Below, piece after piece: positions 2,767 through 9,556 of a stretch of 64,000 bases of DNA. A program made the position numbers and the translations under genes. Positions within the stretch are counted from its first letter, which is position 1; each line of letters starts with the position of its first letter. This DNA comes from Escherichia coli. Lineage in GTDB: Bacteria > Pseudomonadota > Gammaproteobacteria > Enterobacterales > Enterobacteriaceae. The notes below the pieces were generated by a model, which was not told the DNA's origin, ran no database searches, and saw only the letters and a program-made list of their open reading frames with translations. The DNA lies in the NCBI RefSeq assembly GCF_001677475.2, contig NZ_CP015229.1; one strand, written 5' to 3'.

Positions 2767-4107
2767 TCAATGACGGCCGAAAACGGGACGTTTACGGTCA
2801 AAGGTCCAGCCGGGGATCAGGTACTGCATCGGACCTGCGTCGTTACGCGCACCGCCAAGCAGACGTTTATAGGCTTCATGCGCCTTTTGTACCTGCTCCC
2901 AGTCCAGTTCCACGCCCAGACCGGGCGCATCAGGAACGGCAATTTTTCCGTTTTTAATCTCCAGCGGATTTTTGGTCAGGCGACAATCTCCCTCCTGCCA
3001 AATCCAGTGGGTATCGATAGCGGTAGGATTACCCGGTGCCGCCGCACCCACATGGGTAAACATCGCCAGAGAGATATCAAAGTGGTTATTGGAATGGCAG
3101 CCCCAGGTCAGCCCCCAGTCGTCGCAAAGCTGCGCTACGCGGACTGCACCGGAAAGCGTCCAGAAGTGCGGGTCGGCAAGTGGAATATCTACCGCATTGA
3201 GCATCACCGCATGGCCCATTTCGCGCCAGTTGGTGGCGATCATGTTAGTCGCGACGGGCAAGCCGGTCGCCCGTCGAAACTCCGCCATCACTTCACGTCC
3301 GGAGAAACCCTGTTCTGCGCCACATGGATCTTCGGCATAGGTGAGAACATCATTCAGCCCTTTGCACAGATAAATGGCTTCATCAAGCAGCCATGCACCG
3401 TTGGGATCAACGGTAATTCGCGCATCCGGGAAGAGTTTCTTCAATGCACGAACAGTGTCGATTTCTTGCTCGCCAGGTAACACTCCGCCCTTAAGTTTGA
3501 AATCTTTAAAGCCATAGCGATCCTGTGAGGCTTCCGCCAGACGTACAACGGCTTCGCTGTTCATCGCTTTCTGATGCCGCAATTGATACCACTCATGGTT
3601 GCCCGGCGTATTTTCCAGATAAGGAAGATCGGTTTTGGTCCGATCACCGATATAAAACAGATAACCGAGGACGGTAATAGCATCGCGTTGCTTGCCTGGC
3701 CCTAACAGTTCGCAGACCGGAACATTCAGCGCCTTACCTAGCAGGTCAAGCAAGGCGGCTTCCAGCGCCGCCACGGCATTAACGCGCAATTCAAAAGTCC
3801 AGGCACCTTTGCCGAAGGTATCAAAATCGGCTGCCTGATTACCTTTATGCACCTGCTGGACCACTTTATTCAGGCGCGCAACTTCCTGGCCCAGAACCAT
3901 CGGAATAGCATCGACAAGCGTCTGATAAATCACCTCTCCGCCTGGCGCTTCACCAATGCCGGAATGTCCGGCATTATCGGTGAGTACCACGATATTGCGG
4001 GTGAAATATGCGTCATGTGCACCACCAATATTAAGCAACATGCTATCGTGCCCGGCGACCGGAATGACTTTCATATCAGTAATAACAGGACTGGATTGTG
4101 TCGTCAT
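2767..4107 (-). CDS. gudX: Glucarate dehydratase-related protein (GudD paralog), 446 aa
   Basis: ORF 2767..4107; strong similarity to adjacent GudD along whole length (e.g. [38 protein letters not shown] motifs); 4-nt overlap with gudD start. Confidence 0.92.
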
Positions 4108-4108
4108 C

Positions 4109-5461
4109 TTATTGCCCCGCGACAGGTTTCAGCTCGATACGCTTGATATCGCCCACCAGCACCAGGTAGCTCAGTACCGCGATTAAGGCATGAACACCAA
4201 CATAAATCAGCGCCCCATTAAAGGAGCCAGTCGTGCCAACGATATAACCAATTGCGATTGGCGTGACGATGCCAGAAATGTTACCGAACATGTTGAACAG
4301 GCCACCGGAAAGACCGCTGATCTCTTTTGGCGCGGTATCTGCCATTACTGCCCAACCTAGCGCCCCGATGCCCTTACCGAAGAAGGCCAGCGCCATAAAG
4401 CCGATGATCATCCACTCAACATTGACGTAGTTGCAGAACACCATCACCATCGACAGCAACATGCCCATTACGATCGGTGTTTTACGCGCAATGTTCAGCG
4501 ATCCCGTGCGGCGCATCAGCCAGTCGGAAATAATCCCACCCAGCACACCGCCGATAAAACCGCAAACCGCCGGAACGGAAGCCACAAAGCCCGCTTTCAG
4601 AATCGACATCCCACGCGCCTGCACCAGATAAACCGGAAACCAGGTAATGAAAAAGTAAGTCAGGGCGTTGATACAGTACTGACCGATATAAACGCCGATC
4701 ATCATCCGTGACCCGAGCAGCTGTTTGATCTGCCCCCACTTCACGCTGAACGGCACTTTAACTTTGGTATTTTGCTGATCCATATTGATCAGCGCGCCAC
4801 CCGCGGCGATGTACTCCAACTCTTTCTGATTTACACCCGGATGTTGATTTGGCTCGTGGATGACTTTCAACCAGATAAAGCTGATGACAATGCCCAGACC
4901 GCCCATAAAGAAGAAGACGTGTGACCAGCCCACTTCATGCGTCAGCCAGCCCATAATCGGCGCGAAGATCACCGTTGCGAAGTATTGAGCGGAGTTAAAA
5001 ATCGACACCGCCGTTCCCCTTTCCTGCGCCGGAAACCAGGCCGCAACAATGCGACTGTTGCCGGGGAAAGATGGCGCTTCAGCAAGCCCGACCAGGAAGC
5101 GCAGCGTAAACAGGGCAACGATAATGCCGAATCCACTAAAGATATCGACGAAGCCTTGCAGCAAGGTAAACATCGACCAGATAAAGATCGACCAGAAGTA
5201 GACGCGTTTTGAACCAAAACGATCCAGCAACCAGCCACCTGGGATCTGCCCGATAACATAAGCCCATGAGAAGGCAGAGAACACATAGCCCATTCCCACG
5301 GGATCAAGGCCGATATCTTTGGCCATTTCCGAACCGGCAATAGAAAGCGTAGCGCGGTCGCCGTAGTTGAAGGATGTGACGATAAACAACATCACCACTA
5401 TCCAGTAACGAGCATTCGTGCGTTTTTCCACACTGCTCGCAGCCTGACTTAAAGAACTCAT
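4109..5461 (-). CDS. gudP: MFS transporter for D-glucarate/galactarate, 450 aa
   Basis: ORF 4109..5461; hydrophobic multi-TM protein, MFS signature; position upstream of gudXD. Confidence 0.92.
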
Positions 5462-5785
5462 TGTTGCACTCCTGAAAATTCGCGTTAGCCACGCTCACTC
5501 TGGACTGCGACATCGCCAGGAAATCAGAGGTGACGTAGGGTGTTTTTGCCGTTTTTATAGGTCGTTCGCCGAATACGGCGCGTGTTTATATCTGGCAATA
5601 GCAGTATAAAAAGCGCGCCATAGCGGCTCACCGTGCAACAACACAACATTAATGCGTTCAATGAGGCCCGATTTTGGCATTAGCCCTGGACGGTGGAATC
5701 CACTTCACGGAAATGAAAACAAGAACAAGAAAGGAAGGGTTAAAACGAAGAAATAAAGAAGAGTATGAAATGGATCGCTTGACTC

Positions 5786-5842
5786 CAGGCAAACGCCAGT
5801 AAAAATCCGCGCTATGAAGCAGTTTTTACTGGCATTTGCCTG
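5786..5842. repeat. Long inverted repeat (20-bp arms, 17-nt loop) in gudP/yqcA intergenic region
   Basis: caggcaaacgccagtaaaaa ... tttttactggcatttgcctg; arms complementary with one mismatch. Confidence 0.7.
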
Positions 5843-5894
5843 AAAAGATTCGATTCAGCATCGCTAAAACGGCATTTACCGCTCGCTGAACGTA

Positions 5895-6344
5895 TCAGGA
5901 CAACAGCGTGCCCCAATGTTCGACCCACGGATTTGATTCCGTTTCCGGTTCCGGGTTCTCACTGGCGTCAATCAACAGCATTTCGCCAACCCGCTGAGCG
6001 CTCTGTTCCTGCAACAATGCATCGAACTGTTTGCCGCCATTGCAGAAATTCACATAACTACTGTCGCCGAGCGCAATCACGCCATAACGCAGATTCGGCT
6101 GGAAGCCCAGACTATCTTTGATTCCCTGAAAGAGCGGCACAATGCTATCAGGAAGGTCGCCCTGCCCGGTCGTGGACGTAACCACCAGAACATACTTATC
6201 CTGATAGGGCAGCCAGTCGCTTAATTCAGGATCTTCAAATACCGTTGCTTTGTGGCCCTGCGCGGTCAGAATTGCTTCCGCTTCTTCCGCCACTAACAGC
6301 GAATTTCCGTACATAGTGCCCACAAAAATACCAATTTCCGCCAT
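5895..6344 (-). CDS. yqcA: Flavodoxin-like protein, 149 aa
   Basis: ORF 5895..6344; flavodoxin FMN-binding signature ([20 protein letters not shown]). Confidence 0.9.
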
Positions 6345-6361
6345 ACCGTTTTCTCCCTGGA

Positions 6362-7144
6362 TTAGGAACTTATCTCTCCATCCTGACCCGATGGCGCACT
6401 GAACTCAACCCTTTCATTTTCAGGAAGCAGACCCCGCCAGCCAAATTGTGATAACGCCTGCATCCAGGTGCCGTCCAGGCCCGCGTGAATAGTCAACGGC
6501 TCGCCAGTAAAAGGATGCGTCAATGACAACTGACTGGCATGCAGCATTAACCGCTGAAGGCCAAAATGTTCAGCACCGCTGCGATTCTGGCGTAAATCAC
6601 CATGTTTGCTGTCGCCAATAATCGGGTGGCGCAAATGGGCAAGATGGCGACGGAGCTGGTGCTTGCGTCCGGTTTTCGGCTCCAGTTCCACCAGGCCGTA
6701 GCGCGTGGTCGGATAACGTCCGGTCGCTACCGGCATTTCTACGGTCGCCAGACCGCGATAATGCGTCACTGCTGGCTGTGGGCCTTTATCTTCGCGGGCA
6801 AATTTATCAGCGATTTTGTCCAGTTCTTCCACCAGTGGATAATCCAGAACTGCTTCTTCCATCAACCAGCCGCGCACAATCGCATGGTAACGTTTCTGGA
6901 TTTGGTGCTGTTCAAACTGTTGTGCCAGCAGCCGTCCGGCCTCGCTGGATAATCCCATCAACAACACACCAGAAGTTGGTCGGTCCAGACGATGAGCAGT
7001 AAACACATGCTGGCCTATCTGGTCACGCACGGTTTGCATGACCACTACTTTCTCGTCGCGATCCAGCCAGCTGCGGTGAACCAGCCAGCCGGAGGGTTTA
7101 TTTACCGCAACCAGCCATTCATCCTGATAGAGTATTTCCAGCAT
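6362..7144 (-). CDS. truC: tRNA pseudouridine(65) synthase, 260 aa
   Basis: ORF 6362..7144; RluA-family motif [12 protein letters not shown]. Confidence 0.92.
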
Positions 7145-7473
7145 TAGCTCGCATCATCCGCAAAAAGAGCATCCAGTTTTTCCAGCTCAGCCAGAATAAG
7201 CGCGCGTTGCGGGTGGTCCGTCGCCAGCGCCATTTCATAATAGGGAGCAACGGCAAAAGCGCCCGGTAACGGCTGGTTGTTTTCTAACAAATCGTGCATT
7301 CGCGGGATCAGCACCCACTGCAACCACTCCAGTGGTTCCATGGTGTCCATAAAGAACGGTTGGGTACTATTAAATTGATGCGGCTGGGGTTCATCGTTTC
7401 GCCAGTGCTGATGTTCACGCAGTAACGCTTCAAGCGCCTGCAACTGGAGACGAACGCGGTCATGAGTGGTCAT
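7144..7473 (-). CDS. yqcC: DUF446 family protein, 109 aa
   Basis: ORF 7144..7473; 1-nt overlap with truC start; matches E. coli YqcC size and context. Confidence 0.85.
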   Translation of the reverse strand: MTTHDRVRLQLQALEALLREHQHWRNDEPQPHQFNSTQPFFMDTMEPLEWLQWVLIPRMHDLLENNQPLPGAFAVAPYYEMALATDHPQRALILAELEKLDALFADDAS

Positions 7474-7516
7474 AAAGCAACCTCAATAAGAAAAACTGCC
7501 GCGAAGGATAGCAGGA

Positions 7517-7551
7517 ATAAAAAAAGGGAGCACTGTATTCACAGTGCTCCC
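7517..7551 (-). terminator. Rho-independent terminator of csrB
   Basis: Minus-strand hairpin GGGAGCACUGU..ACAGUGCUCCC followed by UUUUUUUAUU. Confidence 0.85.
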
Positions 7552-7884
7552 GGTTCGTTTCGCAGCATTCCAGCTACTTTTGTTGCTCCCTGCTCATCCT
7601 TGACAACTTTTCCTCTGGCCTTGCGGCCAATCGTTCGTCCTGAACTATTGCTTCCTGCTCACACCACCCCGATGTGATACTTCATCCTGAAGTGTCCCTG
7701 GCCTTCCTGACCCACCGAATCATCCTGACCGGTTCTCATTCTCCATCCTGGAGGTGTCCTTTAACGCGTCCTGCGTCATCCTCTTCGCTTCGTCCAGAAG
7801 CCTTTCCCTGAAACACCATCCTGGTGTGTCCTTCAGAAGTGTCATCATCCTGATGTTCACTTCGTTGTCTGACTCCCTGTCGAC
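7517..7884 (-). ncRNA. csrB: CsrB small RNA (CsrA-sequestering), about 368 nt
   Basis: Minus strand begins GTCGACAGGGAGTCAGACAACGAAG and carries about 20 repeated CAGGA(U/A)G / AGGA motifs (seen as catcctg/tcctg on plus strand); ends with hairpin gggagcactgt-gaat-acagtgctccc plus U7. Confidence 0.9.
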
Positions 7885-8057
7885 GAAGATAGAATCGTCT
7901 TTTTCGCGAAGTCTTACAAGGCGCTTACAGACAATGCCTTAAGGAAAATTTCATATGAAAGTTAAGAATTGACAAGCAATATATTGATTTTAAATGAGAA
8001 TAACGATTCTTATCTTTTTAAGTATTCGCTTATTTCCTGGCGATCTCCTACAGAGTC

Positions 8058-8075
8058 TGTAAGAGATCTCTCACA
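8058..8075. promoter_or_regulatory. 18-bp near-perfect inverted repeat upstream of csrB; candidate UvrY response-regulator binding site
   Basis: tgtaagagatctctcaca (half sites tgtaagaga / tgtgagaga), about 175-190 bp upstream of the csrB 5' end. Confidence 0.6.
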
Positions 8076-8094
8076 ACCAGATGGGGTATTTGGA

Positions 8095-8640
8095 TTACAG
8101 AAGAGGCTTAAGTTGATTAAGGAATTCCGCAAGATTTGAGGCTAAATGCGCCCGTTTACGTGTTCCCAGCGTCTCTTTGCACACTTCACCGGAGAGATTA
8201 CACACCGAGATGACCTCTAACTCTTCTTCCAGTGTCGCGATAAATAGCGTGGGCGGCAGTTTTAGCCTTTTCTGAGTCACCAGATGACCAATCTGATTTT
8301 CCTGCACCCGACGGAAGTCGTCTTCACTCCAGGTTTGCAGCAATGTCAGTTTGATATCGCCAAACTGCGCATGCATATCCCCGGCAAACTGAGTCGTATA
8401 AAAGGTATGAATTGTGGGTTGTATCACAATATCAAAAGCGCGTTCAACCGCGTTTACATTTTGTTCCCCGGTAAACGGCTGGGGTTGCCAGTATACGGCG
8501 TCTTCGGTGGTTGAAATAATGCACGGTGAAGGAACGCCGTACAGTTCCTCACTCAACGGCCAGCTTTTATGCTCTTCATGCCACGCATCGCAGTAGCGTG
8601 CAGTAAAATCTGTCAGGGCTTGTGCGGTCAAATCGTCCAC
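8095..8640 (-). CDS. syd: SecY-interacting protein Syd, 181 aa
   Basis: ORF 8095..8640; matches E. coli Syd length/context. Confidence 0.9.
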
Positions 8641-8707
8641 TAATTTCTCTCTTCACTTAAACCAGATACACTTGTCGTTTAGTTTATCTGGTTTATGACG
8701 GTGAAAC

Positions 8708-9556
8708 ATGTCTTCTTATGCAAACCATCAGGCACTTGCGGGCCTGACTCTTGGAAAATCAACCGATTACCGGGATACCTATGACGCCAGCCTGCTACAA
8801 GGCGTTCCGCGTAGTCTGAATCGCGATCCGCTGGGTCTGAAAGCGGATAACCTGCCTTTTCACGGTACGGATATCTGGACGCTGTATGAACTTTCCTGGC
8901 TGAATGCGAAAGGTTTGCCGCAGGTCGCCGTCGGTCACGTTGAACTTGATTACACCAGCGCAAATCTGATTGAGTCGAAGAGTTTTAAGCTCTATCTCAA
9001 CAGTTTTAACCAGACGCGTTTCAATAAATGGGATGAGGTGCGCCAGACGCTGGAGCGCGACTTAAGCACTTGCGCCCAAGGTAAGGTTAGCGTGGCGTTA
9101 TATCGTCTTGATGAACTGGAAGGCCAACCGATAGGTCATTTCAATGGCACTTGCATTGATGACCAGGATATCACTATCGATAACTATGAATTCACTACTG
9201 ACTATCTGGAGAATGCCACCAGTGGCGAAAAAGTAGTAGAAGAGACGCTCGTCAGCCACCTGCTGAAATCAAATTGCCTGATCACCCATCAACCAGATTG
9301 GGGATCGATCCAAATTCAGTATCGTGGACGCCAAATTGACAGAGAAAAACTGCTGCGTTACCTGGTTTCTTTCCGTCATCACAACGAGTTCCACGAACAG
9401 TGCGTGGAACGCATCTTTAATGACCTGTTACGCTTCTGCCAGCCAGAGAAATTGAGCGTTTACGCACGTTATACCCGTCGTGGCGGTCTGGACATTAACC
9501 CGTGGCGCAGTAATAGCGATTTTGTCCCATCGACCACAAGACTGGTTCGGCAATAA
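8708..9556 (+). CDS. queF: NADPH-dependent 7-cyano-7-deazaguanine (preQ0) reductase, 282 aa
   Basis: ORF 8708..9556; two-domain QueF (type II) size; matches E. coli QueF N-terminus [13 protein letters not shown]. Confidence 0.92.

Follow-up and report, generated by a model that had tools for sequence, protein, structure and literature searches.

Between yqcA and gudP, two genes read from the same strand, Escherichia coli carries an inverted repeat with a 20-bp stem and a 17-nt loop, at positions 5786-5842 of the 64,000-nt stretch of chromosome analyzed here (the window). What is this palindrome for? An earlier note, made from the sequence alone, had offered an RNA-stability element, a protein-binding palindrome or a bidirectional attenuator, and the second of these is the best supported: the arms correspond to boxes of the kind that make up the gudP, garP and cdaR promoters, and they stand in a rigidly phased array. 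We propose, with a probability of roughly one half, that the palindrome is the inverted box pair of a decayed, leftward promoter unit of the CdaR type, placed back-to-back with the gudP promoter. Within this reading, which derives from sequence comparison, the origin of the hairpin from an operator pair is well supported. The earlier note had missed two things, the membership of the element in the control region on the gudP side and the opposite-strand promoter.

The hairpin itself is exactly as that note had described it. On the plus strand, CAGGCAAACGCCAGTAAAAA and TTTTTACTGGCATTTGCCTG enclose the 17 nt, and the only A.C mismatch among the 20 pairs becomes a G.U pair on the minus strand, which is the sense strand of both yqcA and gudP. 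The folding energy, proposed as a check, is -36.8 kcal/mol for the minus-strand RNA (z = -9.0) and -30.2 kcal/mol for the plus-strand RNA (z = -7.9); none of 200 shuffled sequences folds equally well, and beyond the 20-bp stem a weaker complementarity reaches 35-nt arms at 77%. The distance from the yqcA stop codon to the hairpin start, put at 55 bp, is 52 nt, and the approximately 320 bp given for gudP agree with the 324 nt between the hairpin end and the gudP ATG.

The note had also proposed a search for the palindrome elsewhere in the genome, and that search came back empty: across the 64 kb an arm has no second copy, not even when 3 mismatches are tolerated (chance expectation, 0). Of 5426 complete E. 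coli genomes, 5425 carry the hairpin at ≥90% identity, in a median of one place per genome, a figure that is the same at blastn sensitivity. The many copies that define a dispersed repeat (repetitive extragenic palindromes or bacterial interspersed mosaic elements (REP/BIME), enterobacterial repetitive intergenic consensus, box C, miniature inverted-repeat transposable elements) are thus not found, and a mobile element was rejected on the same single-copy grounds, with no terminal inverted repeats or extra copies detected. In MG1655 the hairpin lies at 2,922,426-2,922,482 (offset to the window, +2,916,640), where the curated record holds no annotation. The covariance models of Rfam 15, run over positions 4000-9000 and over four orthologous loci, matched only CsrB at E ≤ 1 and gave no family for the hairpin; the CsrB small RNA itself (RF00018, 380 bits) lies at 7516-7875 on the minus strand, between yqcC and syd.

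Promoter boxes and the arms of the hairpin

The following parts of the E. coli module and of the gudP control region are referred to below.

5823-5842, minus strand: left arm of the hairpin, sense CAGGCAAATGCCAGTAAAAA, carrying box B1
5832-5839, minus strand: core of box B1, GCAAATGC, a match to GCWWWTGC; plus-strand reading GCATTTGCCT
5806-5822, minus strand: loop or spacer, sense CTGCTTCATAGCGCGGA, 17 nt, with a weak 4-bp apical stem (-2.8 kcal/mol)
5786-5805, minus strand: right arm of the hairpin, sense TTTTTACTGGCGTTTGCCTG, carrying the partner box B2
5789-5796, minus strand: core of box B2, GCGTTTGC, a 7/8 match to the core, 43 bp from B1
5847-5859, minus strand: block A, sense GCTGAATCGAATC (RCTGAATCGWGTWAGC in other genera), near-invariant
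5865-5870, plus strand: degenerate -10-like hexamer TAAAAC, 23 nt from B1, without T at position 6
5775-5783, minus strand: anchor GTCAAGCGA, directly after the right arm, kept even in genera without the hairpin
5713-5774, minus strand: candidate Rho utilization (rut) tract, pyrimidine-rich and G-poor (C 16, G 3, T 36 of 62)
5693-5712, minus strand: block D, sense TTCCGTGAAGTGGATTCCAC, kept in nearly all genera with the yqcA-gudP arrangement
5675-5686, minus strand: box B3, sense GGGCTAATGCCA, partner box of the gudP unit, whose proximal box lies 42 bp downstream
5603-5642, minus strand: predicted gudP core promoter, GTTGTTGCAC (5633-5642), 24 nt, TATACT (5603-5608), in 70 species

Three promoters of E. 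coli have the same layout.

5603-5642 of the window, minus strand: gudP, GTTGTTGCAC-N24-TATACT
~4995-5050 of locus L083: garP/garL, GCATTTGCAC-N24-TATACT
1900-1945 of locus L084: cdaR, GCATTTGCAC-N24-TATGCT

The design consists of a 10-nt GCWWWTGCAC box, ending in GCAC in E. coli and most genera, followed by 24 nt and TATACT or TATGCT. When the garD upstream spacers of eight further genera were aligned (9 genera in all), the garP/garL promoter had the box, the 24 nt and TATACT in 9/9 genera, and in E. coli the promoters of garP and cdaR have one 14-mer, GCATTTGCACAATG, in common. In both gar and gud an inverted second box stands 42 bp upstream of the proximal one; cdaR has the box and the -10. 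The 14-nt consensus of the boxes is GCATATGCACAAAG, with the palindromic core GCWWWTGC. This core occurs four times in the gud spacer (0.115 expected, P = 0.0005) and four times in the gar spacer (0.07 expected, P ≤ 0.0005), and it is not enriched across the whole window (29 occurrences, 39 expected). On a matrix built from the gar and cdaR boxes only, the gudP proximal box scores 5.1 bits and box B3, which is conserved across genera, 11.4 bits, the fifth best score in the window; exact k-mers common to the gud and gar sets come down essentially to TTATACT.

CdaR has been reported as an activator of the gud and gar promoters (PMC11077982), and autoregulation of cdaR has been suggested (PMC4551912). 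Because the promoters that have the box are those reported to depend on CdaR, the box is most likely the CdaR operator. Other assignments at these promoters were set aside: the gudP proximal box does not fit the CRP pattern TGTGA-N6-TCACA, and a sigma-54 promoter has the wrong spacing, both as judged by eye. In addition, the view of the hairpin arms as simple homologues of the gar boxes TGTGCAAATGCT-N30-AGCATATGCACA was refined, since the nine-genus gar alignment identifies these as a promoter-proximal box and its partner.

The arms of the hairpin follow the same design. The left arm carries the GCWWWTGC core and the right arm is a weak box in all genera. In most genera other than Escherichia the left-arm box reaches 9-13 bits (at least the 99.97th percentile), above the gudP proximal box, and the left-arm boxes of Escherichia (GCATTTGCCT) reach 5.0-7.3 bits. 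On the opposite strand, a hexamer with A at position 2 and T at position 6 lies 24±1 nt from the left-arm box in 15 of 19 non-Escherichia sequences, in 13 of them at exactly 24; its sequence varies (TAGGAT, TAGAAT, TACACT, CATAAT, TAAAAT, TATGAT, TAAACT). Salmonella arizonae has GCATATGCAC-N24-TACACT, in which the 14-mer is the consensus of the gar/cdaR matrix. The distance to the inverted partner box is also alike, with 43 bp in the hairpin and 42 bp in both the gar and the gudP units. An intact-looking leftward unit is present in Salmonella, Citrobacter, Kosakonia, Silvania, Phytobacter and Superficieibacter. E. coli lacks a -10 with A2 and T6 at 24 nt; its TAAAAC stands at 23 nt, and the E. 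coli copy is therefore classed as decayed and not as a functional member of the CdaR-type unit.

Past the leftward promoter, other genera keep approximately 60-75 nt, from GGTCGTT.TTTTGCTTACTGGC to T1, a GC-rich hairpin that abuts the yqcA stop. This stretch, a candidate CdaR-dependent small RNA, has no Rfam match in four orthologous loci (Salmonella, Citrobacter, Superficieibacter, Phytobacter) and is absent from Escherichia. In Escherichia the leftward -10 and the transcribed part are decayed and T1 is gone, and complementarity between the arms has risen from approximately 15 to 20 bp at the cost of box quality. As a separate observation, an intact-looking leftward promoter, ATGCAC-N24-TACACT, can be seen at ~2951-3110 of the Salmonella diarizonae locus (L024), with similar ones in L008, L023, L047, L051 and L064.

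We therefore picture a CdaR-type unit as a proximal box, a -10 hexamer 24 nt on, and an inverted partner box 42-43 bp, or four helical turns, upstream, whose two boxes would be bridged by a CdaR oligomer. The yqcA-gudP spacer would hold a further unit of this kind facing leftward, to yqcA, with the left arm as its proximal box and the right arm as the partner. In Escherichia its -10 and transcribed region would have decayed, and the box pair would have been kept and remodelled into the 20-bp near-perfect palindrome, persisting in E. coli within the phased control region of gudPXD, where it would serve from a distance as a binding or architectural site. A further-reaching version, which we put forward as tentative and rather unlikely, is that Enterobacteriaceae carry an unrecognised CdaR-dependent promoter facing away from gudP, which would drive an RNA of approximately 60-75 nt with a conserved 5' end (GGUCGUU.UUUUGCUUACUGGC), ending at T1 in Salmonella, Citrobacter, Kosakonia and relatives; Escherichia would have lost the gene, and the operator pair would have become a 20-bp palindrome serving yqcA 3'-end formation.

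Several points weigh against the descent of the hairpin from a leftward CdaR-type unit. The E. coli boxes are poor (left 5.0 bits, on a par with the gudP proximal box and at the 99.85th percentile, a match expected about once per 433-bp spacer; right 2.0 bits) and alone would fail a chance test. Since the hexamer of E. coli is TAAAAC and stands at 23 nt, it is the architecture seen across other genera that carries the promoter reading. The module lies approximately 200-245 bp upstream of the predicted gudP start, and many genera retain the core promoter of gudP without having the module, which is thus dispensable there. Rising pairing together with falling box quality fits selection on pairing, or homogenisation by template switching, better than protein binding. 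The literature on CdaR that was searched (in vitro selection (SELEX), chromatin immunoprecipitation and biosensor studies) gave no operator definition, binding data or gudP start site. A published biosensor promoter fragment upstream of gudP includes the hairpin and therefore does not discriminate on whether it is needed.

The conserved module and its spacing

The wider context of the hairpin comes from a comparison of 80 yqcA loci, drawn from one genome per species; species counts in this set are not phylogenetically independent. The yqcA-gudP arrangement is widespread, with spacers of approximately 280-520 bp, and the comparison identifies the E. coli hairpin as the Escherichia form of a conserved module of approximately 75 bp. 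A related hairpin is present in Citrobacter, Salmonella, Superficieibacter and a few others. In aligned spacers the module runs from block A (RCTGAATCGWGTWAGC) through B1 (GGCAAATGCC), a variable centre and B2 (GGCATTTTCA) to the anchor (GTCAAGCGACCTGTTTCACAC). Downstream follow block D (TTCCGTGAA..CCA), B3 (GGGCTTATGCCA), a near-invariant TGTTGTGTTGTTGCACGGTGAG and TATACT, which are kept in all 70 aligned species. The earlier note had named a lack of conservation in related genomes as evidence against the element; the module is kept across at least 10 genera. In some genera it is bracketed by the direct repeats A(A/G)CGACCTGT..CACA. Two side observations concern the arrangement itself: Citrobacter sp. 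FP75 (L016) has an insert of approximately 2 kb between yqcA and gudP, and several Citrobacter species and E. albertii (L011, L014, L015, L017, L020) have no gudP beside yqcA.

Across at least 10 genera the spacing of these parts is nearly fixed: 75-76 nt from block A to the anchor, 71-72 nt from the anchor to TTCCGTGA, 75 nt from TTCCGTGA to TGCAC, and 29-30 nt from TGCAC to TATAC. Real deviations amount to approximately 10 bp; that of Salmonella falls inside the module, those of L038 and L042 downstream of it. Another two outlying rows, L022 (53/94, with the sum unchanged) and L081, arise where the search for block D matched a different position. No such constraint holds for the length of the gudP 5' untranslated region (UTR; 133-171 nt) or for how far the module lies from the yqcA stop. 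The fixed spacings over 5603-5859 on the minus strand, with changes of approximately 10 bp, suggest that about 250 bp of DNA are helically phased or wrapped.

Divergence among Escherichia species follows the same outline. The figure for third codon positions is 14-17%; for the 52 nt that separate the hairpin from the yqcA stop it is 20%, even with block A, at the hairpin-proximal end of that segment, being itself conserved. The arms of the hairpin differ by only 3-7%, and the loop by 35%, with up to 10 of its 17 positions changed and its length always 17 nt. From the hairpin down to gudP the figure is 1.7-3.2%. By these divergences the arms are under purifying selection within Escherichia, and the low divergence from hairpin to gudP, together with the fixed spacing, therefore makes the hairpin part of a phased, constrained gudP promoter block.

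Pairing and box sequence can be told apart in other genera. Over 25 module sequences the positions of the E. coli stem pair in 70% of cases, compared with 32-46% when the partner columns are slid, and pair 16-48 covaries (A-U 7, C-G 7, U-A 3), a pattern that can be explained by the operator and the RNA model alike. The five outermost pairs are found only in Escherichia; therefore, as the alignment reads, the common stem is one of approximately 15 bp, lengthened to 20 bp in Escherichia. In Silvania, Kosakonia, Phytobacter and Atlantibacter the pairing of the arms has decayed, with the boxes and flanks retained, which supports a reading of the boxes at the DNA level.

Block A lies in the promoter spacer that separates B1 from the -10-like hexamer of the opposite strand, and it may be a repressor site. 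A Cra operator there was rejected: only the left half, CTGAATCG, of gcTGAAtCGaTTCAgc fits, and matches with ≤2 mismatches number 13 where 10 are expected. The anchor (5775-5783; GTCAAGCGACCTGTTTCACAC in most genera) and block D (CGTGAA-N-CCA) are each CRP-like, with one good half-site; a footprinting table lists a CRP site for garP/garD, and the main text of that source does not mention gudP (3275166). The gudP 5' UTR holds a hairpin of its own at 5496-5530 on the minus strand, which reads CTCTGA...CCAGAG in E. coli, Citrobacter and Salmonella; most other genera have CATTCTGA...TCAGAATG, so both sides of the stem have changed. Among Escherichia species no other part of the spacer is as constrained as this UTR (1.7% divergence). 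On the plus strand, a 42-aa open reading frame at 5674-5802, on the purine-rich strand, enters the right arm at 5786-5805 and is probably spurious, because the sequence of this region is not conserved between genera. A promoter-like TTGACT-16-AAAAAT at 5779-5806 on the plus strand was ascribed to chance (1 site, 0.8 expected), its start lying inside the loop.

Alternative readings: the hairpin as a possible RNA element, relic or small RNA

The genes around the hairpin are the following.

7144-7473, minus strand: yqcC, near the hairpin
6362-7144, minus strand: truC, near the hairpin
5895-6344, minus strand: yqcA, upstream of the hairpin
5462-5894, 433 bp: the yqcA-gudP spacer, which contains the hairpin
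4109-5461, minus strand: gudP, followed by gudX, also on the minus strand

The DNA of the hairpin would also be transcribed, as the tail of the yqcC-truC-yqcA operon, giving an RNA hairpin of -37 kcal/mol followed by the rut-like tract. The rival explanation that survives best, which we regard as doubtful as a full account, takes the element to be purely RNA-level: a 3' stem-loop of this operon at which Rho would end read-through, exonucleases would trim back to the stem, the mRNA would be stabilised and gudPXD insulated, the same element acting as a weak, partly bidirectional terminator in other genera. In line with this notion, the sense fold is more stable than the antisense fold by 1.4-10.5 kcal/mol in 6/6 Escherichia sequences, the sole mismatch in E. 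coli being G.U on the sense strand. The strand asymmetry of G.U over A.C pairs, 39 vs 32 overall in counts that are not phylogenetically independent, is only suggestive. A stem-loop can likewise claim the covariation at pair 16-48.

What follows the hairpin also has the composition expected for Rho. The 78 nt at 5709-5786 contain, on the sense strand, 20 C and 8 G. Among all 78-nt windows of the 64 kb this places them in the lowest 0.3% for G and at the 99.7th percentile for C/G. Past the anchor, C outnumbers G in each of the genera (607 vs 233 in total) despite sequence divergence; a G-poor tract of this kind fits a rut site. Two sequence features of a Rho-dependent terminator with a protective hairpin are thus present, an untranslated rut-like tract of the expected 70-80 nt and a stable stem-loop upstream of it. 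Moreover, T1 is absent from Escherichia, L072 and L012, and these lineages keep a paired module hairpin (-24 to -37 kcal/mol in Escherichia, -19 to -22 kcal/mol in L072 and L012), and all genera in which the module hairpin has decayed retain T1. In Escherichia no strong hairpin other than that at 5786-5842 was found between yqcA and gudP.

As an intrinsic terminator the element is less convincing. With uniform criteria that allowed sub-maximal stems, a sense-strand scan of 28 orthologues placed a canonical, weak terminator in the centre of the module in five (L008, L022, L064, L066, L072), which have a canonical stem with T5-T7, several others nearly doing so; three qualified on the antisense strand, and L008 and L072 on both. 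These counts lend little weight to the bidirectional attenuator of the earlier note. In Escherichia sequences two scans found no intrinsic terminator at the hairpin, in agreement with the view of that note that it is not a canonical one in E. coli. Where a G+C-rich stem of ≥5 bp with a loop of 3-8 nt is needed, E. coli has a loop of 17 nt and an apical sub-stem of 4 bp, and where ≥5 U should follow within 8 nt 3' of the stem, GGAGUCAAGC adjoins the full stem. The absence of a flanking U-run, also claimed by the note, thus holds for the full stem; the right-arm T5, however, comes directly after the weak 4-bp apical stem, at the place where several genera have a canonical stem and T5-T7.

A stem-loop acting only in RNA leaves much of the locus unaccounted for. 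A terminator does not explain the fixed length of the module and its fixed distance to the gudP promoter, with only ~10-bp indels, nor the box sequence kept where pairing has decayed, nor the opposite-strand -10 at 24 nt, nor the match of the arms to the gar/cdaR boxes. E. coli offers no U-tract after the full stem, and before the internal U5 only an apical stem of -2.8 kcal/mol. The sequence from the yqcA stop to the element is nearly neutral, so that the conserved unit belongs to the gudP side. The supplements of the Term-seq and SMRT-Cappable-seq studies, in the parts available, hold no entry for yqcA or gudP, which is weak negative evidence, and our literature search found no paper joining yqcA with gudP or with a terminator. 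The RNA-stability element of the earlier note is nevertheless a possible second or alternative role, given the stabler sense fold, the rut-like tract and the loss of T1 in Escherichia. It is possible, from these features, that the hairpin has a second role as a yqcA-operon 3'-end hairpin and gudP insulator, and the distal-site role and a 3'-hairpin role taken on after the loss of T1 are not exclusive in E. coli.

It is unlikely, in our estimation, that the hairpin is a functionless relic in E. coli, a decayed promoter whose arms were perfected by template switching during replication and which persists by inertia. The decay of the leftward -10, of its spacing and of the transcribed region in Escherichia and the lower box scores there agree with such a history, as do the hypervariable loop and the many genera without the module. 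Quasi-palindrome correction can produce multi-base changes that perfect the pairing of arms, and the multi-base change that created the outer five pairs is of this type. Inertia, however, is hard to reconcile with arms that diverge by 3-7% where third codon positions diverge by 14-17% and the adjacent upstream 52 nt by 20%, or with an element present in 5425 of 5426 complete E. coli genomes.

Finally, the region of block A and the hairpin is very improbable as a sense-strand small regulatory RNA (3' UTR-derived or independent) or as an attenuator in a long gudP leader: block A is near-invariant just upstream of the stem, as seeds of small RNAs often are, and several genera have a stem with a U-run, but Rfam has no match to the loci of E. 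coli, Salmonella, Citrobacter, Superficieibacter or Phytobacter, and E. coli has no 3' U-tail. A conserved T.TA that precedes block A, once considered as a sense-strand small RNA promoter, is explained as the -10 of the other strand. The position of the -10 and box of gudP, which is that found in garP and cdaR, argues against a leader with its start upstream of the hairpin.

Related systems and significance

Paired or auxiliary operators with helical-turn spacing, as between garP and garD, are the closest likeness to the box pair proposed here. Two inverted boxes stand approximately four turns (43 bp) apart, and the sequence between them is free and its length fixed, with only 10-bp indels; the garP/garD pair and the gudP pair of B3 and proximal box are 42 bp apart. 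The hairpin differs from such operators in that its binding protein is deduced, its E. coli boxes are weak and it has no functional-looking -10, as well as in a complementarity of 20 bp that exceeds the 8-14 bp of a box and in its distance of approximately 200-245 bp from the promoter.

At the RNA level, the 3' end of the trp operon (t/t'), a case associated with Mott, Galloway and Platt in 1985 and with Dar and Sorek in 2018, reportedly combines a stable hairpin, a Rho-dependent zone and exonucleolytic trimming back to the hairpin. The yqcA hairpin resembles it as a strong hairpin without usable U-tract after the last gene of an operon, followed by an untranslated C-rich, G-poor tract; it differs in being known here from sequence, and in a constraint on DNA sequence and spacing that such hairpins do not require. 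With bidirectional intrinsic terminators it has in common A5/T5 flanking the central part, whereas in E. coli the central stem is 4 bp and the A/T tracts are buried in the 20-bp stem, and 5/28 orthologues pass on the sense strand.

REP/BIME sequences are similar in being intergenic palindromes just downstream of a gene, and true REP-like hairpins do occur at this place in Enterobacter and C. koseri; the E. coli hairpin, however, is single-copy and has no sequence similarity to REP. The REP-like hairpins, GCCGGGTAAGGCG...CGCCACCCGGC or GCCTGATAAGCG...CATCAGGC, follow the yqcA stop in C. koseri, Enterobacter and Lelliottia (L012, L026-L046), where they replace T1 or the module.

The palindrome is real, conserved and previously unannotated, and is best read as a regulatory element of an ordinary kind, paired operator boxes, with an instructive evolutionary history and a plausible later role as an RNA hairpin. 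The fragment upstream of gudP, hairpin included, is the standard promoter of CdaR-based glucarate and glycerate biosensors, and the use of glucarate and galactarate matters for enteric growth in the inflamed gut (PMC11077982). For the CdaR regulon, our comparison provides a candidate operator and promoter architecture, namely GCATATGCACAAAG, 24 nt to the -10 and an inverted partner at 42 bp. If the leftward-promoter reading is true, the CdaR operator would be defined for the first time, and the architecture predicts that Salmonella and relatives have a hidden divergent promoter, possibly with a small RNA. Should the palindrome of Escherichia prove to work in RNA as a 3' hairpin too, it would clearly exemplify the turning of a DNA operator pair into an RNA element.

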